Below, piece after piece: positions 4,907-51,918 of a stretch of DNA of 64,000 nucleotides. The notes beneath the pieces are model-generated. The model was not told the DNA's origin, did not search any database, and worked only from the letters and a program-made list of their open reading frames with translations. Source of the DNA: Minisyncoccota bacterium (GTDB lineage: Bacteria > Patescibacteriota > Minisyncoccia > Phycocordibacterales > JBAYGS01); the NCBI GenBank assembly GCA_041666545.1, contig JBAYGS010000001.1:153942-217941 (forward strand). Reading direction: 5' to 3'. Each line of letters begins with the position of its first letter. Within the stretch, counting starts at the first letter, position 1. The position numbers were made by a program, and so were the translations under genes.

Positions 4907-5827
4907 ATGATTAATATCTACACCTACAAAAAACTCAAATGGATTGACTTGGAGTCTCCGACCAAGGATGAAATTCGTTCGATTATGGAAGAGTACCGGA
5001 TTCACCCCCTAATCGCCGATGAATTGATCAATCCCAGCCTCAAGCAAAAGGTTGATCTCTATAAGGATTTCATTTATCTAATTCTCCACTTCCCCGCCCT
5101 GAAGCACAGTCACCAGAAAACTGCCGGCGCCAACCAGGAAATTGATTTCGTCATCGGCAAAGATGTCATTATCACCTCGCACTACGACACAGTCGACCCT
5201 CTCCATGAATTTGCAAAAATTTTCGAGGTCAACAGCATTCTCGACAAAAGTCATATTGGCGACCATGCCGGCTTCATTTTCTATCACATGATGAAAAGCA
5301 TCTATCGCGCCAGCACCAATGAGTTGGAGGCGATTGAAGACTCGCTCAAAGAAATCGAGACCCAGATTTTTGCCGGCGAAGAGCGCGCCATGGTTTTCGC
5401 TCTTTCCAAAATCAGCCGAAATTTGCTGAATTTCAAAACCACGATTTCACTCCATAACGACATTCTTCAATCCTTCGAAGCAGCCGGTAAAATATTTTTC
5501 GCTGGCGAATTTGAGCACTATCTTCAAGCAATCAGCAGTGAATATTTCAAAGTCGACAAGATTATCAAAAGCCACATCGAGGCTTTGGCCGAATTGCGCG
5601 AGACGAACAATTCCCTTCTTTCTACAAAGCAAAATGAAATTATGACAACCCTCACGGTCATGGCCTTCATCATCTTGCCTTTATCGTTCATTTCTTCGCT
5701 CTACAGCATGAACACCTCCTTTTGGCCCTTCGTTGGCGTGAAAAATGACTTCTGGATTATCTCCGGCACGATGGCAATAATCGGCATAATTATTTTCCTG
5801 GCCTTCAAGCGGAAACGCTGGCTGTAG
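4907..5827 (+). CDS. CorA-family divalent cation transporter (SMN in place of GMN)
   Basis: The C-terminus has two TM helices with YSMNTSFWPF between them, giving CorA topology. A TATAAT lies 6 nt upstream of the ATG, suggesting a leaderless-like transcript. Confidence 0.65.
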   Translation: MINIYTYKKLKWIDLESPTKDEIRSIMEEYRIHPLIADELINPSLKQKVDLYKDFIYLILHFPALKHSHQKTAGANQEIDFVIGKDVIITSHYDTVDPLHEFAKIFEVNSILDKSHIGDHAGFIFYHMMKSIYRASTNELEAIEDSLKEIETQIFAGEERAMVFALSKISRNLLNFKTTISLHNDILQSFEAAGKIFFAGEFEHYLQAISSEYFKVDKIIKSHIEALAELRETNNSLLSTKQNEIMTTLTVMAFIILPLSFISSLYSMNTSFWPFVGVKNDFWIISGTMAIIGIIIFLAFKRKRWL

Positions 5828-5901
5828 GCGCGAGGCGCGCCAGAATTAGGAATTGGAAATTATGAATTCAAATTCCTCACTTAATTCATAACCCATAATT
5901 C

Positions 5902-7275
5902 ATGATTCAACTCTACAACACTCTGACCAAGCAAAAGGAAAATTTCGCCCCGATAAAAGCAGGTGAAGTTTCGATGTATCACTGCGGACCGACGGTCTAC
6001 AACTATGCGCACCTGGGCAACTTACGCGCTTATGTTTTTGCCGATTTGCTGAGGCGAGTTTTCGAATATGAAAATTTCAAGGTTAAACAAGTCGTGAACA
6101 TCACCGATGTCGGCCAGCTTGTAAGTGACGCCGACTCCGGCGAGGATAAGATGACTAAAGCCCTGAAACGCGAAGGCAAGCCTCTGACCTTGGAGGCTAT
6201 GGCTGAATTGGCCAATTTTTACACCCAAGCCTTCGTCTCTGACCTCAGAGCTTTGAACATTCTCACTCCCGACTATCTGCCAAAAGCCAGCGAGCACATT
6301 AATGACGATATTGAGGTCATCAAAAAATTGGAGACTAAGGGCTTCACTTATAAAACCTCCGATGGAATTTATTTTGCTGTCGGCAAACTGCCAACTTACG
6401 GAAAGCTGGGTGGCTTAAATCAGGAAAATAAGCAGGCGCGAATTTCCGCCAATCTGGAAAAGCAGGACCAACGCGACTTCACCCTCTGGAAATTCGATGG
6501 CCAAATCGGGTGGGAAAGTCCTTGGGGCAAAGGCTTCCCCGGTTGGCACATCGAGTGCTCCGCCATGTCGGAAAAATATTTGGGGCAACCTTTTGACATT
6601 CACACCGGCGGCATCGACCACATTCCGGTTCACCACAATAACGAAATTGCTCAAAGCGAAGCGGCTAATGACAAACCACTCGCTAACTTTTGGTTGCACA
6701 GCGCTTTTCTCACCTTGGCTGCCGGCGAAAAGATGGCCAAGTCAGAAGATAATTTTTTAACTATCGATTCGCTCCTCAAGCTCAGGACCAGTCCCCTCGC
6801 CTACCGCTATCTGCTGCTTACCACTCACTATCGAAGTCCGCTAAATTTTTCTGTGCCGGTCGTAACAGCCTCCGAAGTTGCTCTCGGCCGTTTACGAAAT
6901 TTTGTCTCCGGGATCAAATCTGCCGGAAAAATTGAACCGAATTACCAAAAACAATTCAACGAATTTATTTCTGACGATTTAGACCTGCCAAAAGCTCTGG
7001 CCCTGGCTTGGGAATTAGTTAAAGATGACAAAATTTCTGCACCGGATAAAAAGGCCACCTTGCTTGATTTTGATCGAGTTTTTGGGCTCACTTTAGATAG
7101 AGTTGAAACTTTTGAGATCCCGACAGCTATAGCGGAGCTTGTCACAGAGAGACAAGCCGCGCGGGAGAAATCCGACTGGAGTTTGGCGGATCAATTGCGC
7201 AAGCAAATCGAGGATCAAGGTTTCGAAGTTTTGGACTCCAAATCCGGCCAGGAAATTAAAAAGGCCAATCGCTAG
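5902..7275 (+). CDS. cysS: cysteinyl-tRNA synthetase
   Basis: HCGPTVYNYAHLGN (HIGH-type motif), KMAKS (KMSKS motif) and the class I catalytic core are present. Confidence 0.95.
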   Translation: MIQLYNTLTKQKENFAPIKAGEVSMYHCGPTVYNYAHLGNLRAYVFADLLRRVFEYENFKVKQVVNITDVGQLVSDADSGEDKMTKALKREGKPLTLEAMAELANFYTQAFVSDLRALNILTPDYLPKASEHINDDIEVIKKLETKGFTYKTSDGIYFAVGKLPTYGKLGGLNQENKQARISANLEKQDQRDFTLWKFDGQIGWESPWGKGFPGWHIECSAMSEKYLGQPFDIHTGGIDHIPVHHNNEIAQSEAANDKPLANFWLHSAFLTLAAGEKMAKSEDNFLTIDSLLKLRTSPLAYRYLLLTTHYRSPLNFSVPVVTASEVALGRLRNFVSGIKSAGKIEPNYQKQFNEFISDDLDLPKALALAWELVKDDKISAPDKKATLLDFDRVFGLTLDRVETFEIPTAIAELVTERQAAREKSDWSLADQLRKQIEDQGFEVLDSKSGQEIKKANR

Positions 7276-9021: not shown

Positions 9022-9629
9022 ACGCCATCGACAAATTAGTTGAAAAGTTTCGAAACTTTCCGGGAATTGGGCCCCGCCAGGCGCGTCGTTTCGCCTACTT
9101 CCTTTTAAGCCAACCGCCCACCGCCCTAAAAGAGCTCGCTTCACTAATCGCCGAACTAAGAGGCAACATTATCGCCTGTCAAAAATGTCAGCGTTATTTT
9201 GAAAAGGAGCGCGCAGGCAATCCAATCTGTAATATCTGCCGAGACAAAAATCGCGAAGCCGAAACTTTAATGATAGTCGCCCGAGATATTGATTTGGAAA
9301 GCATCGAGAAAGCCAACAGCTACCACGGCAACTATTTTATTCTTGGCGGCAACCTGCCGATTCTCGAACCGGAGCCCGAAAAGAAAATTCGTTTACAACT
9401 TTTGCTTAATCGAGTCGGATCCGAGCCGGCAATCAAGGAAATCATCTTGGCCATGAATTTAAACCCCGACGGCGAACACACCGGTGATTTTGTTGAGGCT
9501 GAATTGAGGAGAAACTTTGCCGACCGCGACATTAAAATTAGCCACCTAGGCCGTGGCCTCTCGACCGGTGCGGAACTCGAATACGCCGACCGAGAGACAA
9601 TCAAGAGCGCCCTCAAAAATCGCTTCTAG
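9018..9629 (+). CDS. recR: recombination protein RecR
   Basis: HhH N-terminus, C4 zinc finger (CQKCQRYF...CNIC) and Toprim domain. The start overlaps the dnaB stop as ATGA. Confidence 0.9.
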   Translation: MNAIDKLVEKFRNFPGIGPRQARRFAYFLLSQPPTALKELASLIAELRGNIIACQKCQRYFEKERAGNPICNICRDKNREAETLMIVARDIDLESIEKANSYHGNYFILGGNLPILEPEPEKKIRLQLLLNRVGSEPAIKEIILAMNLNPDGEHTGDFVEAELRRNFADRDIKISHLGRGLSTGAELEYADRETIKSALKNRF

Positions 9630-11569: not shown

Positions 11570-11607
11570 GGAAAGTATAAGGTATCGGGTATATAGTATA
11601 TGGTATT
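11570..11607 (+). promoter_or_regulatory. conserved promoter-like motif, copy A (aagtataaGGTATCGGGTATATAGTATATGGTATT)
   Basis: Lies ~30 nt upstream of the yqeY ATG. Near-identical copies are at 59524..59559 and, inverted, at 43071..43106. It contains TATAGT and TATATG -10-like hexamers. Confidence 0.45.
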
Positions 11608-11633
11608 AAGACCAAATTTTTACTCACCTTACC

Positions 11634-12086
11634 ATGTCTCTACAAAACGATATTCGAAGCCAAGTCAAAGACGCTATGCTCAAACGCGAGGCGGTGCGTT
11701 TAGGAGTCTTGCGTGGCCTCCTGGCCGCTTTCACCAACGAATTGGTCGCCAAAGGCAAAAAGCCGGACCAAGAGTTAGCCGATGAAGATGTCCTCACGGT
11801 AATCAAACGCTCGGTCAAGCAACGAAAGGATTCAATCGAGCAATTCAAAGCCGGCAACCGTGACGATTTGGCTGAAAGTGAAGCTGCCGAATTGAAAATT
11901 CTAGAAACCTTTCTCCCTCAAATGATGAGCGAAGCCGACATCACAAAAGTCGCCGAGGCCAAAAAAAAGGAACTAGGAGTGACCGATAATAGCAAACTCG
12001 GTGTCTTAGTCGGAGCCGTGATGAAAGAGCTTAAAGGCCAAGCTGACGGCGCCACCGTTAAAAAAGTAGTGGAATCCTTGTTTTAA
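11634..12086 (+). CDS. yqeY: GatB/YqeY domain protein
   Basis: Full-length match to the YqeY/GatB C-terminal-like domain family (AMLKREAVRLGVLRGLLAAF...KVVESLF). Confidence 0.85.
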   Translation: MSLQNDIRSQVKDAMLKREAVRLGVLRGLLAAFTNELVAKGKKPDQELADEDVLTVIKRSVKQRKDSIEQFKAGNRDDLAESEAAELKILETFLPQMMSEADITKVAEAKKKELGVTDNSKLGVLVGAVMKELKGQADGATVKKVVESLF

Positions 12087-37091: not shown

Positions 37092-37131
37092 GCAAACAAA
37101 AATATCGCCAGACCTATTCAGGCCTGGCGAT
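37092..37131 (-). terminator. terminator of the 37137..37508 gene
   Basis: tatcgccagacctattcaggcctggcgata preceded by an A-run (T-run in minus sense). Confidence 0.6.
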
Positions 37132-37136
37132 AACCT

Positions 37137-37508
37137 CTAGCCCCGCATAATCGACATTAATCCAGTTCGATTCCTTGTGTTGTACCTAACAATGTAACTG
37201 CCAAAGGAATCTTGGAAGTTCAATCTCACAAACCGACCCCGAAGGATAAAATCCTCTCCAGAATCACCCACCCAGGTAAAACTGTTCACGCAACCAAACA
37301 GTGCTACGGTAGTTCGCTCAGCAAGCCACTTCGGATCATTGTTTGCGACAAAACGAAACCTAGGAAGATGTCGATTTGGTACATCAAGAGCAAACTCTAC
37401 TCCAGGACGATGCCCGGGCAGTCCGCCAACAGCGTCTCTCAAAAGCTCCCTTGATGGGCCGTCTGTGACTTTAAAGGTCCCGACTCTAACTCTGGTTTGT
37501 TGTGCCAT
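37137..37508 (-). CDS. hypothetical protein (123 aa), GC-richer
   Basis: Perfect RBS aaaggag 7 nt upstream of the ATG. No recognised family. Confidence 0.5.
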   Translation of the reverse strand: MAQQTRVRVGTFKVTDGPSRELLRDAVGGLPGHRPGVEFALDVPNRHLPRFRFVANNDPKWLAERTTVALFGCVNSFTWVGDSGEDFILRGRFVRLNFQDSFGSYIVRYNTRNRTGLMSIMRG

Positions 37509-37650
37509 ACAGCACTCCTTTCTTAGTGAACAATCCGTTTAGGGCACGGATATAGCCCCTTATTCCCCACCTTGTGGTGCAGAGAACGACTTAGCCATAC
37601 AGCTAAGTATCTTTTTTCAGATTAACATTTTTTGTATTTCTTGTCAATAC

Positions 37651-38244
37651 CTACTTAACTTTGCTTAGAATTTTAAAATCCTCCTTCAATTCAGGCAATT
37701 TAGTCCGGTTGTAAATCGCCACACACGGATGATAGAGGGCTACGATATGGATATCGCCGTAGCTCGCTTTGGCTGGATATTTTTTACCATGAGCCTTGCC
37801 TATCGGCTCCATTTCAAAATCCAAATCGAATTTTTTCATAATGTAGCCGTAGGAATACCGGCCAAGTGCCGCAATAATTTTTGGTTGAATAATTTCAATC
37901 TGACGATCCAAAAAAGGCCCATAAATTTCTATTTCCTCGGGTGAAGGGTCGCGATTTTCCTGCGGACGATCTTTGACGATATTGGTTATATAAACTTCGG
38001 TGCGAGGAATTTTTACTGAATCCAAAAGCTCATCCAAAATTTTTCCCGCCGCGCCACAAAATGGCCGGCCAGTTTTGGCTTCATTTCGGCCTGGCGCTTC
38101 ACCAACGAACATTATCCTCGAGTCATGGCTTCCCTCCCCGATTACCGGGAAATAATTGTTTGAAATCCGATATTCGTAAAGCGGAGAACTTTTTAACGCC
38201 AAAACCTCCTCCTTAATTATTCGCATTAAATCTGTCTTGACCAT
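37651..38244 (-). CDS. uracil-DNA glycosylase, family 4
   Basis: GEAPGRNEAKTGRPFCGAAGKILDELL motif and a Cys cluster. Confidence 0.85.
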   Translation of the reverse strand: MVKTDLMRIIKEEVLALKSSPLYEYRISNNYFPVIGEGSHDSRIMFVGEAPGRNEAKTGRPFCGAAGKILDELLDSVKIPRTEVYITNIVKDRPQENRDPSPEEIEIYGPFLDRQIEIIQPKIIAALGRYSYGYIMKKFDLDFEMEPIGKAHGKKYPAKASYGDIHIVALYHPCVAIYNRTKLPELKEDFKILSKVK

Positions 38245-38245
38245 C

Positions 38246-38821
38246 TTATTTGTTACGATTCACCCACCAAGAACTATTCTTGTCGCCGAACCACCAATCG
38301 GTCGATTCCGACTTCATAATCTCCGCCGCCACATCCTCCGCCACTTTGGTCTTAAGCCGTTGCAGAGCAGAATTAATCCAATCCTTGGCCCTGGTATTAC
38401 CGATATCAACTTGCTCCTTCAAGGAAATAATCCATTCCAAATTGTCGGCATCTTTGGCCAAAATCGATTCCGGAGTTTTGCGCTCTTCATATTCATGAAT
38501 GGTCTCTAAAATATCTTTTCCGAAAGGCAAGGTATGAGTCAAATCATCCACTGCCTTAGCCTCTTTTCGTTCAACATACTTTTGGTGGACATAATTCAAA
38601 TCTGAAACTCTGGCCTCGGCCAAGTCATGAAATAGACACATTTTAATCACTTTCGAGGCGTCAACTTTGCCGTCGAGTTTCGCCAAGGTGTAGCCGATGT
38701 AAACCGCCCGATTGACATGCTCGGCCACGCTCTGATCGCCGGTACCCAAGAAATGAAAACCGCTTCTCGGTGTCTTGGACAGGATTCCTATTTCAAAGAG
38801 AAAGTTGGCGATGTTTTTCAT
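38246..38821 (-). CDS. HD-domain phosphohydrolase (YfbR-like)
   Basis: Motifs H...HD...D (AEHVNRAVYIGY...LFHDLAEARVSD). Confidence 0.7.
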   Translation of the reverse strand: MKNIANFLFEIGILSKTPRSGFHFLGTGDQSVAEHVNRAVYIGYTLAKLDGKVDASKVIKMCLFHDLAEARVSDLNYVHQKYVERKEAKAVDDLTHTLPFGKDILETIHEYEERKTPESILAKDADNLEWIISLKEQVDIGNTRAKDWINSALQRLKTKVAEDVAAEIMKSESTDWWFGDKNSSWWVNRNK

Positions 38822-38850
38822 AAGCTTAGGAAAGATGGCTAAATAGATTT

Positions 38851-39468
38851 CTAGTATATCAGAGGCACAAAACTAAATCCCGGAAACTCCTCGGTCTCGA
38901 TTTCGGTCTCGGAAGTCTTTCTGATTTGCACGAGTTCATGGTTGACCGGCATTACCATTATCCCGCCAATCTTAAGCTGATTTAGCAGTTCCTCGGAGAT
39001 TAACTCAGCCTCGGCCGAAACCAGAATCCGATTATAAGGTGCCTCTTCCGGGAAACCAATCTCAAGATCCTTGCCGCTTATGATTTTAGCCTGAGGCAAT
39101 TTATACTTGGCCAAATTGGTTTGGCCGAATTTTACCAATTCCGGCACAATTTCCACACCGATTACCTTTCCGGATTTGCCAACGACGTGAGAGAGCAACG
39201 CCGTAGAGAAGCCGGAGCCCGAACCAACATCCAAGACCCAATCACCATTTTTAGGCTCCAGAAGCTCCAACATAAAAGCGACCGTCGACGGTTGAGACAT
39301 AGTCTGTCCAAAACCCAGTGGCAAGGCGTAATCCTCGTAGGCTTCGATCTGATAATCTGCCGGCACAAAATCGGCTCGGTCAATCGCCCGAAAAGCTTTC
39401 TCAATGGCTTCATTCTGAAATACCTTAGTCCCCTCTTTTAGATGAGTCAGAAACTGTTCTTTATCCAT
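38851..39468 (-). CDS. pcm: protein-L-isoaspartate O-methyltransferase
   Basis: SAM motif VLDVGSGSGFSTALLS and Pcm N-terminal region. Confidence 0.85.
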   Translation of the reverse strand: MDKEQFLTHLKEGTKVFQNEAIEKAFRAIDRADFVPADYQIEAYEDYALPLGFGQTMSQPSTVAFMLELLEPKNGDWVLDVGSGSGFSTALLSHVVGKSGKVIGVEIVPELVKFGQTNLAKYKLPQAKIISGKDLEIGFPEEAPYNRILVSAEAELISEELLNQLKIGGIMVMPVNHELVQIRKTSETEIETEEFPGFSFVPLIY

Positions 39469-39477
39469 TTTAATTAT

Positions 39478-39777
39478 TCAAACAAATTTAAATTTTTCCG
39501 CTTTTAAAATTCGCCTTTTACGAGCCGGGCCGCGGTTGTAACCCCCGAGCGTGCCGTCGCTCTTTATCACTCGATGACAAGGGATGTGTGGATCGAAATT
39601 GGTTTTTAAAATCGATCCCACAGCACGACACCAGAGCGGATGCCCAGACAACTTGGCGACCTGCTGGTAGGTCATAACTTGGCCAGCCGGAATTTTGGCG
39701 ACCACCCTTAGAACTTGAGATCTAAAAGAGGGTTTTCCCTTCACCGACTTCTTTGACTTTGGCTTTTTTCGCTTCAT
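39478..39777 (-). CDS. ogt: methylated-DNA--protein-cysteine methyltransferase, DNA-binding/catalytic domain only
   Basis: PCHRVI active-site motif. Start at MKRKKPKSKK (39777) overlaps the upstream nuclease 3' end by ~55 nt. Confidence 0.75.
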   Translation of the reverse strand: MKRKKPKSKKSVKGKPSFRSQVLRVVAKIPAGQVMTYQQVAKLSGHPLWCRAVGSILKTNFDPHIPCHRVIKSDGTLGGYNRGPARKRRILKAEKFKFV

Positions 39778-40533
39778 TAGCTTTATATAATTCTCTAATT
39801 GAAAGTCCGACCGCCTCGCGATAAGGACAAAACTCACAGTCAGCGCCGGCCTTCGGAAGTTCGGCCGAGTCCAAACACTCCTTAATTTTGAGCAAGATGC
39901 CGTCTACCCAATCGGTTTTGCCGAGGTGAGGGATCAAAGTGATATCGAAATCCAATCGACCATCAAACGCCTCCCGATCCTTTTTGCCGTTTACATAAAC
40001 AAAATAACCGGTATCAGAAACCTTAAAACCCATGTTCCTCAAGAGCCACTGATAAATTTCCATTTGCCTCTTGTATTGAGCCTCCCACTTAGTATCCGAC
40101 AAAGCGTCCATTTTGCCGTCTTTGGCGGTCGCTTTGTAATCAACCACAATGAGCTCCTTAGCCGGATTAACCCAGAGATCGTCAATCGCACCAGAGACGG
40201 TAAAACCGGTCGGCTGGTGATAAAAAGACAGGCCTTGGAAATTATCGCGCCACAGATCAATATCTTTATGCTGAAACGGTACCGCCTCAACCCCATAGCG
40301 CTTCAAGAGTGGATGCTGGGTCGCTTTCGCACGGTGAATGTCAAACTCTTTTTTCAGAAGTGCATCGACGGCAAGATTCAGAGTGAAAGACGGCCCCCTT
40401 GGACGAGAAACGCCGATTTTGTTATCTAAATAAAAGCACCTCTCACACTCGGTAAAGAGGTCAATTTTTGACCGCGATAAACGCCACCTTTCCCCGCCAT
40501 AATTCCAATTGGCGCTCCTTTTGGTCTTTTTTT
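39722..40533 (-). CDS. PD-(D/E)XK nuclease with a Cas4/AddB-like Fe-S cysteine cluster
   Basis: One N-terminal Cys (FTECERCFYLD) and three C-terminal Cys (C...CEFCPY). Motif IVVDYKA is present. The true start is the ATG at 40533 (MAYEKK); the longer ORF-track start overlaps the upstream gene. Confidence 0.6.
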
Positions 40534-40631
40534 CGTAGGCCATGCAATCAGTATAAGGTATAAAGTTGAAAGTATAAAGTATGGGACTTTGGGCATTTAA
40601 AAACCGCCAGCGAACCGGCGGTTTGGAATAT

Positions 40632-41417
40632 TTAGAATCTTTTTCTCTTGGCCAGCCAGGAAATCCGTTTGCGATTGTTTTTGGCCCACTCCAAAAGATC
40701 TGAGGTTTCACCAATCTGACTGGACTCACCACGAATTTCACTAAGCTCCGGGTGCGTCTTGAGCTTTCGTTCGACGCGCCGAAGGATTGCGCCAACATTG
40801 CTGCCGGTCACCCCGAACTTTTGTCCAATTTCCGCCATGGTCACATCGCCGAAATAGTACAACTGGAACATTTGAGCACTCCGCCAGTCAAAATGCTTTT
40901 TGATAAAAGCTGAGACGATTTCCCACTTTTCATTGTTAGTGGCCTCTTCGGCCGGAGACGGGGGCGCCTCGAGTTGATGCGCAAAATGACCTTGCGCGAG
41001 TTCAAGCAACTGGCTTGGTGATACCTTTCGATCAATCACTATCAATCGAGCCCGACCAAGAAACAACTCACTACGAACTTCTTCAGGGAAAAGCTCGTCA
41101 ATCGTTTGGCCAGTGAGCTTCATCAGCTTCTCCTCCAAAATTCCAGCCTTCCTGGCAACAGCCTTACGACTAGCCCGATGTTTGGAAAAAACTAGTGGTG
41201 GCAGGCGCTTCATTGCCAAAACCTCATAGAGCACTCCTTTTTGAAGTCCAAGAAATTCCGCCGCTTGCCCTACAGTCCAGCCCCGCTTTCTAATCGCGTT
41301 ATAGAGAGCGCCGTGCTTCATCCTGGCGACAATGGTGATATCAAAACCGGACTTTTCGAGATCACCCACAGCCCCTCCTTGAGACGGGTCATAGACTGGG
41401 TCAAACAAAGTTGTCAT
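40632..41417 (-). CDS. sigma-70 region-4-like HTH protein with an additional N-terminal HTH
   Basis: C-terminal MFQLYYFGDVTMAEIGQKFGVTGSNVGAILRRVERKL matches sigma region 4.2. No region 2 was recognised. Confidence 0.5.
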   Translation of the reverse strand: MTTLFDPVYDPSQGGAVGDLEKSGFDITIVARMKHGALYNAIRKRGWTVGQAAEFLGLQKGVLYEVLAMKRLPPLVFSKHRASRKAVARKAGILEEKLMKLTGQTIDELFPEEVRSELFLGRARLIVIDRKVSPSQLLELAQGHFAHQLEAPPSPAEEATNNEKWEIVSAFIKKHFDWRSAQMFQLYYFGDVTMAEIGQKFGVTGSNVGAILRRVERKLKTHPELSEIRGESSQIGETSDLLEWAKNNRKRISWLAKRKRF

Positions 41418-41483
41418 TTAGTTCCTTTTTGATGATTCTGTTCTTTCCTGACACTAACACAGATATACAACAAAAGCAACAGA

Positions 41484-41524
41484 AAACCGCCCTTCACCTG
41501 CGACAGGTGAAGGGCGGTTTTAAA
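41484..41524. terminator. bidirectional terminator
   Basis: aaaaccgcccttcacctgcgacaggtgaagggcggtttta. Confidence 0.75.
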
Positions 41525-41528
41525 TCTT

Positions 41529-42017
41529 TTATTCAGCTAGAGTATTGAAGATGGCCCAAACCGGCTGGCCAACATCATCGATTAATGGCAAATCTTTTTT
41601 AGGATCAAAGGCTCGATCTCCGTCTTCGGTATGGATCATGGCATAATAAGTTTTGGCCGGCAACATACCGCGCAAAAGCTCTACTGAACCGGAGTGCTCA
41701 CCGGCTTCGAAAAGCTGCGCCCCCAAAATGTTTCCTGGTGCGCCGTTATTGTCTTCATGAATCGCCACCCAAGAAGTCTTCTCGACTTTCACCGAATCAA
41801 TGCTCGCAGAAATCCCTGCAACCTGGTCGCCGACCACAATTGAATTGCCGGTAATTTCTAGACCGGTTTTATTTTCAACCTTGCCGGAAGTTTTGTCACC
41901 AACGATTGCGACTCCGGCTGGAGATTTAGTGAGCCACAACCAGGCACTGCCAAAGCCGACCAAGAAGGCGACTACTGCGATGACCACATACTTACCGTTT
42001 GATTTCTTCTCGTCCAT
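41529..42017 (-). CDS. hypothetical secreted or membrane-anchored protein
   Basis: N-terminal TM helix. No recognised family. Confidence 0.45.
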   Translation of the reverse strand: MDEKKSNGKYVVIAVVAFLVGFGSAWLWLTKSPAGVAIVGDKTSGKVENKTGLEITGNSIVVGDQVAGISASIDSVKVEKTSWVAIHEDNNGAPGNILGAQLFEAGEHSGSVELLRGMLPAKTYYAMIHTEDGDRAFDPKKDLPLIDDVGQPVWAIFNTLAE

Positions 42018-42162
42018 ATTTCTTAATAAGTTAAATTATATAGCTACAGTCTAGCTAAAATTACCCCAATGTAAACCCACAGAGTTTATTGGAAACCAAA
42101 AAAGCCAGCCGTCAATCCTTGAGAGCTTTCAAACACCAAACTGCCCCCAAAAACCCTTGATT

Positions 42163-43017
42163 TTAGGCCAGATGTGTCGGCAGAGCCGGTCGCTCGGAAC
42201 GACACAACATCTCGGCCTCGGCTAAAACCTTTTCGACCTCGAGATCAGAAAACCCAAGCGATGACAATACTTCAGGTTTACCGGCAACATCTCGGCAAAG
42301 CACTAAACCGTTGCCCAACAAAATATCTTTTTCACTTTTCGTGAGATGAGTCATACAAGTAATCGGGTGCAAACCGGAAGCTTCAACCATGTCTTGCAAA
42401 TTACCTTTGGACGGATAGTTCCAACCGACAACTTTCAAACCAATACACTTGGCATACTGAATCGCACTACTTGAGAATTTGGTATTAGTAATCAACCAAA
42501 AATCATCCATCTTTCGCTTGTGACCATAATTAAATTCCGCATTACTCAAATCATCTTTTCGGGATTTGATGTAGAGAGCCACTTTGGCATCAGTCTTCGT
42601 ACCGGGTTCATTATGAAATTTAGCTTCAATCATTATCAGCTTCTCATTGTTATAGGCCACCACATCAAGCTCATGAGTGATGCAGTGCCCGCTTACAATT
42701 TGGTCAGTAAGCGCGGTATAGCCGTGCTCAATCATCAAATCGGCCAAGAATTTTTCAAAAGGAAATCCGGACGGCCCGAAACTCAAAAGGGCCCGTCTTA
42801 AAGAATAGCGGGAAGCAATCGGTCGTTCATATTTTTTTAGCAAATCAAAAGCCAGCCGGTAAAGCTCGCTGGTTGTCATGCCATGCTTCAGCCTGGGCTT
42901 AATTTGGACAACAATCTTGTCGATAAGAGCATCCGGCGCGCCGGCGCGTGTCAAAGAATTGCGAAACTTGCCTTCATCAAACACTTCCCTTTCACCGTCC
43001 GCTTTGATTAAATCCAT
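42163..43017 (-). CDS. ATP-cone domain fused to an Mrr-like restriction endonuclease domain
   Basis: N-terminus MDLIKADGEREVFDEGKFRNSL...SELYRLAFDLL fits the ATP-cone. C-terminus ELDVVAYNNEKLIMIEAKFH fits the Mrr_cat PD-(D/E)XK core. Confidence 0.6.
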   Translation of the reverse strand: MDLIKADGEREVFDEGKFRNSLTRAGAPDALIDKIVVQIKPRLKHGMTTSELYRLAFDLLKKYERPIASRYSLRRALLSFGPSGFPFEKFLADLMIEHGYTALTDQIVSGHCITHELDVVAYNNEKLIMIEAKFHNEPGTKTDAKVALYIKSRKDDLSNAEFNYGHKRKMDDFWLITNTKFSSSAIQYAKCIGLKVVGWNYPSKGNLQDMVEASGLHPITCMTHLTKSEKDILLGNGLVLCRDVAGKPEVLSSLGFSDLEVEKVLAEAEMLCRSERPALPTHLA

Positions 43018-43070: not shown

Positions 43071-43106
43071 ATAATACCATATACCTAATACCATATACTA
43101 TCTACC
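43071..43106 (-). promoter_or_regulatory. conserved promoter-like motif, copy B (inverted; contains ATAGTATATGGTATT twice, partially)
   Basis: The reverse complement is ggtagatagtatatggtattaggtatatggtattat. It lies ~55 nt upstream of the ATP-cone/Mrr gene start. Confidence 0.45.
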
Positions 43107-48543: not shown

Positions 48544-51500
48544 CTATACAATATCACTAACTACAAAATTAAGCAAGCGACCCTTTACATAAATGGTTTT
48601 AATCAGTTTCTTACCATTTAACCACTTAGAAACCTCGCTCATTTGCCTGGCCTTTTGCTCAATCTCAGCCTGGTTTGCCCCTATATCGATTTCCAAAATC
48701 GCCCGAGTTTTCCCGCTGATTTGGATGGCAATTTTGGCGGTTGAGTCCTGAATTTTCGCCGGATCAAAAGTCGGCCACGCTTCAAGGTGGATGGATTTCT
48801 TACTTGCCCGACTGCGTCCTCGCGGATTAGGGCTTACCAAATTAGACCACAGCTCTTCCGTGATGTGTGGCGCAAACGGAGCCAAAAGTTTTAATAAGAT
48901 CTTGAAATAATCTTCACCCAACTTCCCTACTGCTTCAATTTCATTAAGCAAAATCATCAGTGAGCTAATAGCAGTGTTGAATTTCATTTCGGAAATGTCT
49001 TCTGAAACCTTTTTGATTGTTTGATTAAATAGAATTTCCAGTTTCCCCTGTTGTTGGTTGTCAGTTGTAAGTTTGTACTGTAACCGCCAGACTCGCTCCA
49101 AAAATCGGCGTGAGCCGGCAATTCCTTCGGTACTCCAAGCAATCGCTTGATCAAAAGGCCCCAGAAACATCTCGTACAGACGCAAAGTGTCGGCGCCGAC
49201 TTTTTCAGAGATATCATCAGGGTTAACCACATTACCCCAACGCTTGCTCATCTTCCGTCCGTCCTCGCCCATAATCAAGCCGACTGTTTGAAGTCTAGTG
49301 AAAGGTTCAACTGTCGAAACGGCGCCAATATCAAGCAGGAACTTATGCCAAAAACGAGCATAGATTAAATGTCGGGTCGCATGCTCAGCCCCGCCAACAT
49401 AGAAATCTACCGGAAGCCAGTATTTAATTTTATTTTGAATATTGTTGCTTGAAATTTGTTTGGTTATTGTTTCTTGCGATTTGAGATTTTCGCTTATGCA
49501 ATAAGCGATATAGTACCAACTTGAGCCGGCCCATTGTGGCATCGTATTCGTCTCGCGCTTTGCCGGACCCTTGCACTTCGGACATTTCACATTCACCCAC
49601 TTAGAAATCGCGGCAAGCGGTGACTCACCTGTGCCAGTCGGCTCGTAAGATTTAACCTTGGGCAATTTGACCGGTAGATCTTTTTCCGGCACCGGTACGG
49701 CCACGGTGACCGGTTCAATCTCCCAGGCTACCAAACCATTCTGCTTAATCTTTTCGACATAATTAGCTCCAAAAGCACTGTAGGCAATCTCCAATTCTTT
49801 CGCCGATCGAAAATTCTTTTTGCTTAATTGCGACAAAATAGATTTATCTTTAAAAACCTCGTCAAAATTCTTATAGACTCTAGATGATTTGACTCGATAA
49901 ACCAGTTCCTCCCTAACTTTCCTAGTTTTTTGGTCCTTGCGGCTGAAAAGCAACAAATCACCAACCTTGAAATCGCCAAAATATCTCCCTTTTTCTTCAG
50001 GGTTAAGGGCACGAGTTTCTACAGTTTTGACTCCTGACTTCAAATCTCGCCAAACCGGCTCATAATAAAAGTTAAGAGTAGTTTTCGCCTTTGCCCGATC
50101 AGTCTCAAGGGCACATTGGGCACAGTGCACAAGTGGAATCGGTTCGCCCCAATACCTTTGACGCGAGAAGACCCAATCTCGGAGTTTGTACTTGGTAATC
50201 ATTTTCCCGCCGGCAAATTCAGTAATTTCTTTTTTGGCCAATGCCGACTCAGTGTCATTAAATTTACTTGAATTAATTAAAACACCGTGTCCAACAAAAG
50301 CCTGCTCTTTATCAAAGAGGCCCCAGGCGTATTGATTATTAGGCAGGTTAAGGAATTCTGGCATCTTGGCGCGCTCAATCCAGACCGGAGAATGTTTGGC
50401 CTTTTCAGATTCAGAGACTTCATCTTGCTCGCCATCCACTAGCTCAAAATAAAGTGTGTGGCCCAGGGAATATCTATTTACATCTTTATGACCGGCAAAG
50501 TAGTGGCTGTGAACTTCTCCTCCGACCCGACGAATAAACTTGGCATTCTTAAAGCCGGTCTCCTCATGGATTTCACGCTTGGCGGTTTCCGTGACATCTT
50601 CGCCGTCTTCAACCCCGCCGATAATAAAGGAGTGCCAATTAAATTTTTGCCAGTCCAAACACAAAAACTTATCTTCTTGCCAATGCTTCAGGATCACGTA
50701 AACCGTTTTCCGCTTTTCTGTCTTTTTGTCGGCACGAACAGCATCCGGTCCGGAAACAGTTTTAAAGTATGGAGCAATAACTTCCTTAATCGGCAAATTA
50801 TATTTCTTAGCAAAAGCAAAATCGCGCTCATCGTGGGCCGGCACGGCCATTACTGCGCCGGTGCCGTAGTCAGCCAAAACATAATCGGCCACCCAGATTG
50901 ACACTTCCTCGTTATTGGCCGGATTAATCGCCTTAATACCTTTCAGCTCGACTCCGGTTTTCTCTTTATTTTCGGCTGTGCGCTCGATTTCGGTTTTATT
51001 CTTCGATAGTACGATATATCGTACTATCTCGTCCCAGTTTTGAATTTTTGGTTTTAAGTCTTGGAGTAATTTTGATTCCGGCGCCAACACCACATAAGTG
51101 ACGCCGAAAAGCGTATCGGCTCTGGTCGTAAACACTCTAATCTCCTCCTCAACTTGAAACTTTAAACTTGAAACTTTAAAACTAATCTCCGATCCTTCCG
51201 ACTTCCCAATCCAATTTTTCTGAAGCTCGATAATCGAATTCGGCCAGTTTAAAATCGGCCCGCCAGTTTTATCCTTCGCGTCCAAATCGGCAAGCAGTCT
51301 TTCGGCATAATCAGTAATTCTCAAAACCCACTGACGCATCGGCTTTTTCTCAACCACACTGCTACAGCGTTCGCAAAGGCCATCTTCCACATCCTCATTC
51401 GCCAAACCGGTCTTGCAAGACGGGCACCAGTTGATCGGTTCAAAGGATTCATAAGCCAAACCTTTTTCAAAAAGTTTTAAGAAAATCCACTGCGTCCACT

Positions 51501-51918
51501 TGTAATAGGCCGGGTCGGTCGTGTTTACTTCCCGACTCCAATCATAATCAAAACCAAAAATCTCCAACTGCTTTTTATAGCGTTTAACATTCTTGGCGAC
51601 CGCAATCGCCGGATTAGTCTTGGTTTTGATGGCATAGTTCTCAGCCGGTAAACCGAACGCATCAAAGCCCATCGGGTGAAGCACCGAGTGGCCCTGCATT
51701 CTTTTCATTCGCGAAATTATATCGGTTGCGATATAGCCCTTGGGATGCCCAACATGAAGCCCTTCACCGGATGGATACGGGAACATGTCCAAAATATAAA
51801 ACTTTTTTTTATTTGAATCTTCCTTAGTGGCATAAATTTTCTGCTTTGCCCAAATCTTCTGCCACTTCGATTCAATTTTGCGATGATTATAGTCTTTGCT
51901 GTGCATAGGCAAAATCAT
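48544..51918 (-). CDS. leuS: leucyl-tRNA synthetase with two inserted extra domains (Nudix-like and ASCH/PUA-like)
   Basis: HIGH-type motif GLHVGHPKGY, CP1 editing motif YGTGAVMAVPAHDERDFAFA, KMSKR. The protein is 1124 aa, against a typical ~800-860 aa. Details are in the findings. Confidence 0.9.
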   Translation of the reverse strand: MILPMHSKDYNHRKIESKWQKIWAKQKIYATKEDSNKKKFYILDMFPYPSGEGLHVGHPKGYIATDIISRMKRMQGHSVLHPMGFDAFGLPAENYAIKTKTNPAIAVAKNVKRYKKQLEIFGFDYDWSREVNTTDPAYYKWTQWIFLKLFEKGLAYESFEPINWCPSCKTGLANEDVEDGLCERCSSVVEKKPMRQWVLRITDYAERLLADLDAKDKTGGPILNWPNSIIELQKNWIGKSEGSEISFKVSSLKFQVEEEIRVFTTRADTLFGVTYVVLAPESKLLQDLKPKIQNWDEIVRYIVLSKNKTEIERTAENKEKTGVELKGIKAINPANNEEVSIWVADYVLADYGTGAVMAVPAHDERDFAFAKKYNLPIKEVIAPYFKTVSGPDAVRADKKTEKRKTVYVILKHWQEDKFLCLDWQKFNWHSFIIGGVEDGEDVTETAKREIHEETGFKNAKFIRRVGGEVHSHYFAGHKDVNRYSLGHTLYFELVDGEQDEVSESEKAKHSPVWIERAKMPEFLNLPNNQYAWGLFDKEQAFVGHGVLINSSKFNDTESALAKKEITEFAGGKMITKYKLRDWVFSRQRYWGEPIPLVHCAQCALETDRAKAKTTLNFYYEPVWRDLKSGVKTVETRALNPEEKGRYFGDFKVGDLLLFSRKDQKTRKVREELVYRVKSSRVYKNFDEVFKDKSILSQLSKKNFRSAKELEIAYSAFGANYVEKIKQNGLVAWEIEPVTVAVPVPEKDLPVKLPKVKSYEPTGTGESPLAAISKWVNVKCPKCKGPAKRETNTMPQWAGSSWYYIAYCISENLKSQETITKQISSNNIQNKIKYWLPVDFYVGGAEHATRHLIYARFWHKFLLDIGAVSTVEPFTRLQTVGLIMGEDGRKMSKRWGNVVNPDDISEKVGADTLRLYEMFLGPFDQAIAWSTEGIAGSRRFLERVWRLQYKLTTDNQQQGKLEILFNQTIKKVSEDISEMKFNTAISSLMILLNEIEAVGKLGEDYFKILLKLLAPFAPHITEELWSNLVSPNPRGRSRASKKSIHLEAWPTFDPAKIQDSTAKIAIQISGKTRAILEIDIGANQAEIEQKARQMSEVSKWLNGKKLIKTIYVKGRLLNFVVSDIV

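Follow-up and report, generated by a model that had tools for sequence, protein, structure and literature searches.

The closest described relative of the protein considered here is AF1548 of Archaeoglobus fulgidus, a structural-genomics protein (PDB 1Y88) with a predicted function: a 2007 analysis assigned it as a restriction-type nuclease, with D38, E51 and K53 as catalytic residues (PMC1821046). Other described proteins resemble parts of it. ATP-cones serve as allosteric ATP/dATP sensors in NrdR and in ribonucleotide reductase (RNR), the type IV enzymes of the Mrr group share the nuclease core, and the CARF-PD-(D/E)XK effectors Can2, VC1899 and Cdn1 have, in outline, the same order of a small-ligand sensor followed by a nuclease of restriction-endonuclease fold. 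The protein is encoded within a run of eight open reading frames (ORFs), all adjoining, co-directional and on the minus strand, at positions 37651-43017 of a 64 kb stretch of a Paceibacteria chromosome (Patescibacteria, or candidate phyla radiation, CPR). This whole stretch is called the window, and all coordinates are window positions (Table 1). Because it carries an ATP-cone and an AF1548-type nuclease, the protein is referred to as the ATP-cone nuclease.

We estimate a probability of roughly three in four that the genes form part of a vertically inherited housekeeping block of the Paceibacteria chromosome, and that they are neither a single operon nor a defence or phage cassette. Most of the region is ordinary, consisting of known repair and housekeeping genes that had been wrongly grouped as a defence-like operon in an initial annotation. 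The eight contiguous minus-strand genes of that annotation are present at essentially the same coordinates. Its domain assignments (ATP-cone with Mrr_cat, PD-(D/E)XK, Sigma70_r4, Ogt, Pcm, HD and family-4 uracil-DNA glycosylase, UDG) are largely supported by Pfam and NCBIfam (TIGR) profiles, which were used here against their curated cut-offs (GA, gathering cut-off). One of its gene ends, 40533 for the PD-(D/E)XK nuclease, is out of frame; the gene is at 39722..40543, with its ATG at 40543.

The ATP-cone nuclease has 284 residues, with the ATP-cone at residues 1-80, the nuclease domain at approximately 85-200 and a C-terminal helical domain at approximately 207-272. The ATP-cone profile PF03477 matches residues 4-76 (E 2.6e-8; 34.7 bits against a GA of 25.8), Mrr_cat is a marginal pass (5.9e-5; 23.6 bits against 21), and the Pfam domain AF1548-like_C matches at 3.6e-4. 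PDB 1Y88 is matched by residues 90-270 at E 4.4e-34 using the single sequence and at 9.6e-41 using a profile. An AlphaFold2 model has a pLDDT of 89 and a pTM of 0.83, with a pLDDT of 86-96 over residues 1-70. When it was compared with known structures using Foldseek, 1Y88 was again the best match (E 1.7e-15, TMt 0.76), followed by the nuclease domains of Can2, the Can2-related VC1899, Cdn1 and MspJI (E 3e-4 to 5e-3). The N-terminal domain superimposes on the NrdR ATP-cone with TMt 0.41-0.46 and a root mean square deviation of 1.8-3.1 Å over 79-82 aligned columns (probability 1.00), and also matches the ATP-cones of RNR.

The likeness to AF1548 covers the nuclease core and the C-terminal helical domain, with D38, E51 and K53 corresponding to D118, E131 and K133 of the window protein. 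The solved chain of AF1548 (199 aa) has no ATP-cone, whereas the window protein has about 80 additional N-terminal residues that form one. The likeness to the ATP-cones of NrdR and RNR lies in the Pfam score, in the fold superposition and in an aligned K-x-x-G motif: the family profile aligns the N-terminal K-x-x-G-x-x-E-x-F-x-x-x-K-L with the corresponding motif of E. coli NrdR, weakly, at E 0.018. A phmmer search of PDB sequences with the ATP-cone alone, as a single sequence, found nothing relevant. The window ATP-cone differs from these in being joined to a nuclease, rather than to a Zn-ribbon or a reductase. Mrr type IV enzymes share the Mrr_cat core, just above GA, and the fold matches include MspJI and AspBHI. 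Membership of this group was rejected on architecture, the N-terminus being an ATP-cone with no Pfam match to the Mrr_N winged helix, and on distribution, the gene being fixed in a housekeeping block and not patchy or mobile. The CARF effectors are matched by Foldseek at E 3e-4 to 1e-3 and with an identity of 11-17%; their sensor is a CARF domain and not an ATP-cone, and the window gene has no context of CRISPR or of cyclic-oligonucleotide-based anti-phage signalling systems (CBASS).

The family is widespread, with 4594 relatives at E<=1e-3 (clusters at 90% identity), or 438 clusters at 50% identity at E<=1e-30. The top 120 relatives are 50-82% identical to the window protein and, where the source names them, all come from Patescibacteria; they are called either 'ATP cone domain-containing protein' or 'restriction endonuclease'. 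A literature search on AF1548 and on fusions of ATP-cones with nucleases or restriction enzymes found no functional study, the one pertinent paper being the 2007 analysis of AF1548. The family is catalogued but uncharacterised. It combines an ATP-cone, an AF1548-type nuclease and a helical domain in a fixed architecture, lies within Patescibacteria housekeeping operons, and is a conserved core gene of Paceibacteria.

In 142 representatives of the 50%-identity clusters, E116, D118, E131 and K133 of the nuclease are at least 99% conserved, and in the ATP-cone K5, G8 and K17 are at least 96% and T49 92% conserved. Both domains are therefore under strong constraint. The protein could in principle be an NrdR-like nucleotide-sensing DNA-binding regulator, with a nuclease fold that serves for binding only and a proximity to repair genes that is simply inherited synteny. 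Restriction-endonuclease folds have been re-used as DNA-binding modules, the ATP-cone aligns best with NrdR both by fold and by profile, and the neighbours of the gene differ completely between lineages. However, the conservation of all four catalytic residues argues for kept catalysis rather than binding alone, and we regard such a regulator as unlikely.

We infer instead that the protein is a catalytically active nuclease and that adenine nucleotides would influence its activity or assembly; regulation of the nuclease by nucleotides through the ATP-cone is plausible. As a chromosomal DNA-maintenance endonuclease, it would act on DNA through its intact E-D-ExK site and C-terminal helical domain, and ATP or dATP on the ATP-cone would set its activity or oligomeric state, as in NrdR and ribonucleotide reductase. 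If the ATP-cone does gate the nuclease, the regulatory principle of RNR and NrdR would extend to DNA processing. A more specific and speculative proposal, which we put forward only tentatively, is that CPR bacteria (and some Chloroflexota) have in this protein a housekeeping endonuclease in which DNA cleavage would be gated by the balance of ATP and dATP, coupling DNA repair or processing, together with UDG, the RecB-class nuclease and DinB, to the supply of dNTPs. It would then be the first ATP-cone to govern a nuclease, where the others govern the synthesis of nucleotides, and the bacteria concerned rely on nucleotides that they scavenge.

The genomic position of the gene was analysed using contigs that encode close and distant relatives and, together with these, 80 species-representative loci, which were compared with the window proteins by tblastn. 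A co-directional backbone is shared by 41 of the 80 loci (Paceibacteria), in the order LeuRS, a 342-aa Sigma70_r4 protein, DUF8128, YceG, MnmA, ATP-cone nuclease, a slot of variable content, and AlaRS. MnmA immediately precedes the ATP-cone nuclease in 33 of 38 loci, with an estimated median gap of approximately 40 nt between the two genes and of only 3 nt in one close relative (L001), so that in these relatives the ATP-cone nuclease gene is probably co-transcribed with the tRNA-modification gene. Such a conserved housekeeping position is typical of a core gene passed on by vertical descent, not of an accessory defence gene.

The content of the slot was counted in the 37 species-representative loci that have both anchors (ATP-cone nuclease and AlaRS). 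UDG is the most frequent occupant (26 of 37 loci), followed by PepF (15), the PD-(D/E)XK nuclease (13) and Ogt (11); DUF7282 is found in three loci and the HD protein in two, and neither the helix-turn-helix (HTH) protein, nor Pcm, nor the 123-aa ORF downstream of UDG is found in any. The initial annotation had linked its grouping to conservation of the gene order, and had raised the question of whether the nuclease genes are accessory. Gene order is indeed conserved along the backbone, but not within the slot, and the ATP-cone nuclease, fixed after MnmA, does not behave as an accessory gene. A reasonable interpretation is that the slot would have gathered enzymes acting against spontaneous chemical damage.

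The other 39 loci, in which the ATP-cone nuclease is 37-46% identical to that of the window, share none of the window's neighbours. They are labelled mostly as Levybacteria or, for many, as 'uncultured Gammaproteobacteria', and a few as Chloroflexota. In this second group (L047-L086) the ATP-cone nuclease gene follows a DUF2079/LPG-synthase-like membrane protein in 30 of 38 loci. Of these 38 loci, 22 have a DinB-type Y-family polymerase (IMS domain) nearby and 5 a LexA-like S24 peptidase, which places the gene close to DNA-damage genes a second time and independently. The neighbours in Chloroflexota, inspected by eye only and with noisy ORF calling, show no theme and no obvious repair or defence genes.

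Several points weigh against a housekeeping block with a repair function. Synteny among relatives may reflect shared ancestry only. The repair neighbours differ between lineages and are absent from the Chloroflexota loci, and a repair role for the ATP-cone nuclease itself is thus weakly supported. DUF7282 and Pcm do not match a DNA-repair theme. The profile match of the ATP-cone to NrdR is weak by sequence, as noted above, and nucleotide binding is putative. The similarity in fold to the CARF-gated nucleases Can2, VC1899 and Cdn1 leaves a signalling or defence-like mechanism formally open. Finally, the terminators and promoters described next are predictions, and read-through is possible.

The transcriptional organisation was examined because the initial annotation had treated the eight genes as one operon, with several overlapping gene ends. 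There is one such overlap, between Ogt and the PD-(D/E)XK nuclease, of 24-116 nt depending on the Ogt start codon; no other pair overlaps, so that the claim was overstated. Three spacers are short (HD/UDG 1 nt, Ogt/Pcm 9 nt and Pcm/HD 29 nt). The others are long: 88 nt between nuclease and HTH gene, 111 nt between HTH gene and DUF7282, 145 nt between DUF7282 and ATP-cone nuclease, and 88 nt between ATP-cone nuclease and MnmA. The HTH gene is bracketed by two predicted hairpins. The terminator at 41521..41483 has an RNA folding energy of -33.8 kcal/mol (z -7.7), equalled by none of 200 shuffled sequences, and the hairpin at 40624..40596 has -15.5 kcal/mol (z -2.7). No terminator is predicted within the stretch from the PD-(D/E)XK nuclease through Ogt, Pcm and HD to UDG. 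A further terminator follows the 123-aa ORF (-24.1 kcal/mol, z -5.3).

This arrangement is also found in relatives. The locus L087 has the same gene order of DUF7282 (80% identity), HTH (72%) and nuclease (86%), and keeps both hairpins around the HTH gene, with sequence changes. L001 has no HTH gene, yet a terminator and a TATAAT box are found between its DUF7282 and nuclease genes. In both L087 and L001 a TATAAT box lies approximately 9 nt before the ATG of the orthologous nuclease gene. Because predicted terminators flank the HTH gene and are kept in relatives, the genes most likely do not form one transcription unit; the internal terminators and the long spacers contradict a single operon of eight genes. 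Most likely there are at least four units, as judged from the sequence: ATP-cone nuclease; DUF7282; HTH; and the five genes from PD-(D/E)XK nuclease to UDG, referred to below as the repair operon.

These observations bear directly on the function that had been proposed, in which all eight genes would be one translationally coupled operon encoding a nucleotide-regulated DNA-damage or anti-phage module, with the nucleases as effectors and the HTH protein as regulator. The genes are co-directional and contiguous, the catalytic motifs of both nucleases are intact, and the fold of the ATP-cone nuclease is like that of the ligand-gated Can2 and Cdn1. PADLOC (PADLOC-DB v2) gave a Cas4-like match (2e-9), a weak CARF_PDDEXK match (9e-5) and a methyltransferase match. 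These are matches at the level of domains only, and no defence system was called by PADLOC among the nine proteins analysed. Nor was a CRISPR-like array found in the 64 kb window using TRF, and at the related loci that were examined the Pfam annotation of neighbour genes lists no cas domain. The proposed regulator, with a mere five relatives and no occurrence in the 37 anchored loci, is cut off by conserved predicted terminators, while the proposed effector is held in position after MnmA in a housekeeping backbone and has entirely different neighbours in the 39 distant loci. The defence operon is largely refuted by these comparative data, and we consider it highly improbable.

A second suggestion was that the block came into the chromosome with a phage or other mobile element, as a cassette that has since been domesticated. 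Some of the proteins do match phage families in PHROG. The matches of the PD-(D/E)XK nuclease are moderate (phrog_31195 at 7e-16 and a Cas4-like family at 9e-11); a dNTPase family of phages is matched by the HD protein (9e-9), and a phage sigma family (2e-5) by the HTH protein, whose gene is lineage-restricted and insertion-like. For the ATP-cone nuclease, however, neither PHROG nor a tblastn search of 50,697 phage records gave a match, and a Foldseek comparison with viral folds (BFVD) gave remote single-domain matches only, none of them full-length. GC content and skew run on continuously into the flanks, no integrase, repeats or tRNA are found at the borders of the block, and flanking and internal genes alike keep their positions across dozens of species. 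An origin of the whole block from a phage or mobile element therefore has very little to commend it. The HTH gene alone might have been acquired recently.

Within the housekeeping block, one occupant of the slot is the PD-(D/E)XK nuclease, which heads the repair operon. Its AlphaFold2 model (pLDDT 86) matches the AdnA nuclease domain, RecE, Cas4, EXO5 and MGME1 in the PDB at E 5e-6 to 1e-4. In 20 orthologues and 39 homologues D121, D122, D135-Y-K137 and Q160xxxY164 are invariant, these being RecB-type motifs. So are the four cysteines C33, C36, C236 and C239, in a CxxC...CxxC arrangement; a fifth cysteine, C223, is present in only 17 of the 20 orthologues. The cysteine pattern is thus 2+2, and not the 1+3 signature of Cas4 and AddB that had been reported for this gene. 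The likeness to the RecB family of Cas4, AddB, AdnA and EXO5 lies in the D...D-x-K and QxxxY motifs, the fold and the four invariant cysteines. It differs from Cas4 and AddB in the spacing of the cysteines, in its scores against Cas4 profiles, in the lack of cas genes and arrays, and in its linkage to UDG and Ogt. Identity as a Cas4 was rejected, since the protein is below the cut-offs of both profiles (Cas_Cas4 PF01930, 18.2 bits against a GA of 22.7; TIGR00372, 32.6 bits against 65), has no 1+3 cysteines (C...CxxCx5C), and has no array in the window.

This nuclease has at least 7999 relatives and its family is very large in Patescibacteria, the top 120 being 59-100% identical. At most of the loci with this nuclease, the next gene is either UDG or Ogt and then UDG. 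In one locus (L013, CAZXUM010000021.1, approximately 5190-6600) a single ORF fuses the nuclease in frame to family-4 UDG. This Rosetta-stone-type fusion suggests that the nuclease and UDG work together, although it was seen only once and could stem from an error of assembly. At the C-terminus, encoded by 39722-39790, a Lys-rich linker is followed by a final [TSK]LF in half of the close homologues (60 of 120), among them the window protein, which ends in ...GEGKTLF. We take this tail to resemble a motif for binding the beta-clamp (sliding clamp), which is a lead rather than a result. Once a base has been excised, the nuclease would probably process DNA ends or flaps. A RecB-class CxxC...CxxC family with recurrent linkage to UDG and Ogt, one UDG fusion and a frequent [TSK]LF tail points to a nuclease devoted to repair, in reduced genomes for which little is known of the repair pathways. 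The genes of the region are of known kinds; this nuclease and the ATP-cone nuclease are still reasonable targets for biochemistry.

Together, the products of the repair operon would act on O6-alkylguanine (Ogt), isoaspartyl residues in proteins (Pcm), uracil in DNA (UDG) and the turnover of (deoxy)nucleotides (HD). Ogt matches DNA_binding_1 at 96.1 bits and TIGR00589 at 73.5 bits (cut-off 46.4), and has the sequence IPCHRVI, containing the PCHRV acceptor-cysteine motif. It consists of the C-terminal methyltransferase domain only, the N-terminal domain being absent, and its orthologues are 82-100 aa long. There are three options for its start codon (GTG at 39837, ATG at 39777 and GTG at 39745), all of which overlap the 3' end of the nuclease gene, and the overlap of the two genes is also seen in the locus L003. 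Pcm exceeds the TIGR00080 cut-off (161.1 bits against 159.05). The HD protein is YfbR-like (2.3e-7), with a weak PHROG match to dATP triphosphohydrolase (9e-9). UDG matches TIGR00758 at 178.9 bits against a cut-off of 125.3. Classical family-4 enzymes have an iron-sulphur (Fe-S) site with four cysteines. Inspection of the window sequence finds two cysteines only and no N-terminal CxxC, so the Fe-S site seems to be absent and the enzyme is probably without the Fe-S cluster of the classical enzymes.

Table 1. Features of the region at 37651-43017 and its immediate flanks.
Feature	Coordinates	Strand	Evidence
Candidate promoter of ATP-cone nuclease gene (motif copy B of the initial annotation)	43071..43098	-	tandem repeat of GTATATGGTATTA
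ATP-cone + AF1548-type PD-(D/E)XK nuclease + AF1548-like C-terminal helical domain	42163..43017	-	Pfam, PDB 1Y88 match, AlphaFold2 model
DUF7282 protein, N-terminal membrane anchor or signal sequence	41529..42017	-	Pfam DUF7282 1.3e-10; hydrophobic N-terminus in translation
Predicted terminator 3' of DUF7282 gene	41483..41521	-	18-bp stem + U-rich tail
HTH protein, 261 aa, sigma-70 region-4-like C-terminal HTH	40632..41417	-	Sigma70_r4 9.6e-7
Terminator-like hairpin directly 3' of HTH gene	40596..40624	-	10-bp stem + UUUUU
Promoter-like TTTATA-17-TATACT	40550..40578	-	ends 6 nt before nuclease start codon
RecB/Cas4/Exo5-class PD-(D/E)XK nuclease	39722..40543	-	PDDEXK_1 3.6e-11
Short Ogt	39478..39777 (start uncertain, up to 39837)	-	DNA_binding_1 1.1e-27
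Pcm, protein-L-isoaspartate O-methyltransferase	38851..39468	-	PCMT 3.1e-53
HD phosphohydrolase, HD_3 / YfbR-like 5'-deoxynucleotidase type	38246..38821	-	HD_3 6.7e-29
Family-4 UDG, last gene of five-gene unit	37651..38244	-	UDG PF03167 7.5e-32; TIGR00758
123-aa ORF with no family match, separate downstream unit	37103..37508	-	own predicted terminator 37132..37103

Two genes of the run remain to be described. The DUF7282 protein has no evident link to DNA metabolism. The HTH protein had been described as a sigma-70-like double HTH. The C-terminal HTH is well matched by Sigma70_r4 (residues 179-220; 28.7 bits against a GA of 24.1), whereas the N-terminal one is weak (HTH_8/HTH_17, E 0.03-0.07). 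It was considered as a full sigma-70 factor and rejected, since Pfam gives no match to Sigma70_r2 and TIGR02937 scores below its cut-off (38.7 bits against 42.9), matching only profile positions 85-163. It was also rejected as a close paralogue of the neighbouring 342-aa Sigma70_r4 protein, since a BLASTP comparison of the two reached only E 0.011, over 54 residues. Among 5.8e9 proteins its five relatives include the window's own protein. The gene is lineage-restricted and a near-orphan, and is apparently transcribed on its own.

Some candidate promoters can be proposed. The TTTATA-17-TATACT sequence may be the promoter of the five-gene repair operon, and the transcript from it may be leaderless. 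In the window and both relatives, only 6-9 nt separate the end of the -10-like box from the ATG (window 40543-40555; L087 approximately 1570-1585; L001 approximately 9478-9492), and this short distance suggests a leaderless or near-leaderless mRNA. Upstream of the ATP-cone nuclease gene, the tandem 14-mer at 43071..43098 contains GTATATGGTATTA twice and closes with an extended -10-like TGGTATTAT. The exact 13-mer GTATATGGTATTA, tandemly duplicated at 43072-43098, also occurs once at 11596-11608 on the plus strand, 25 nt upstream of the gene at 11634, and with up to two mismatches there are 6 matches against 0.68 expected. By a resemblance to the consensus only, the 13-mer is a candidate for a promoter element of extended -10 type (TGGTATTAT/A) that these genes may share.

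A search of the whole window with Rfam at gathering thresholds found one tRNA only, and nothing in the intergenic gaps, including 37509-37650; these gaps therefore hold no riboswitch or small RNA that Rfam recognises. That gap, of 142 nt on the minus strand between UDG and the 123-aa ORF, has a promoter-like site of TTGACA type directly after the UDG stop codon, which would give a leader of approximately 100 nt.

It is worth adding that LeuRS, the first gene of the backbone (48544-51918, minus strand), carries an unusual insertion in the window. It is 1124 aa long, compared with 830 aa in the closest relative, L001, and has a NUDIX domain (PF00293, 2.4e-10) at residues 425-519, inserted just after the editing domain.

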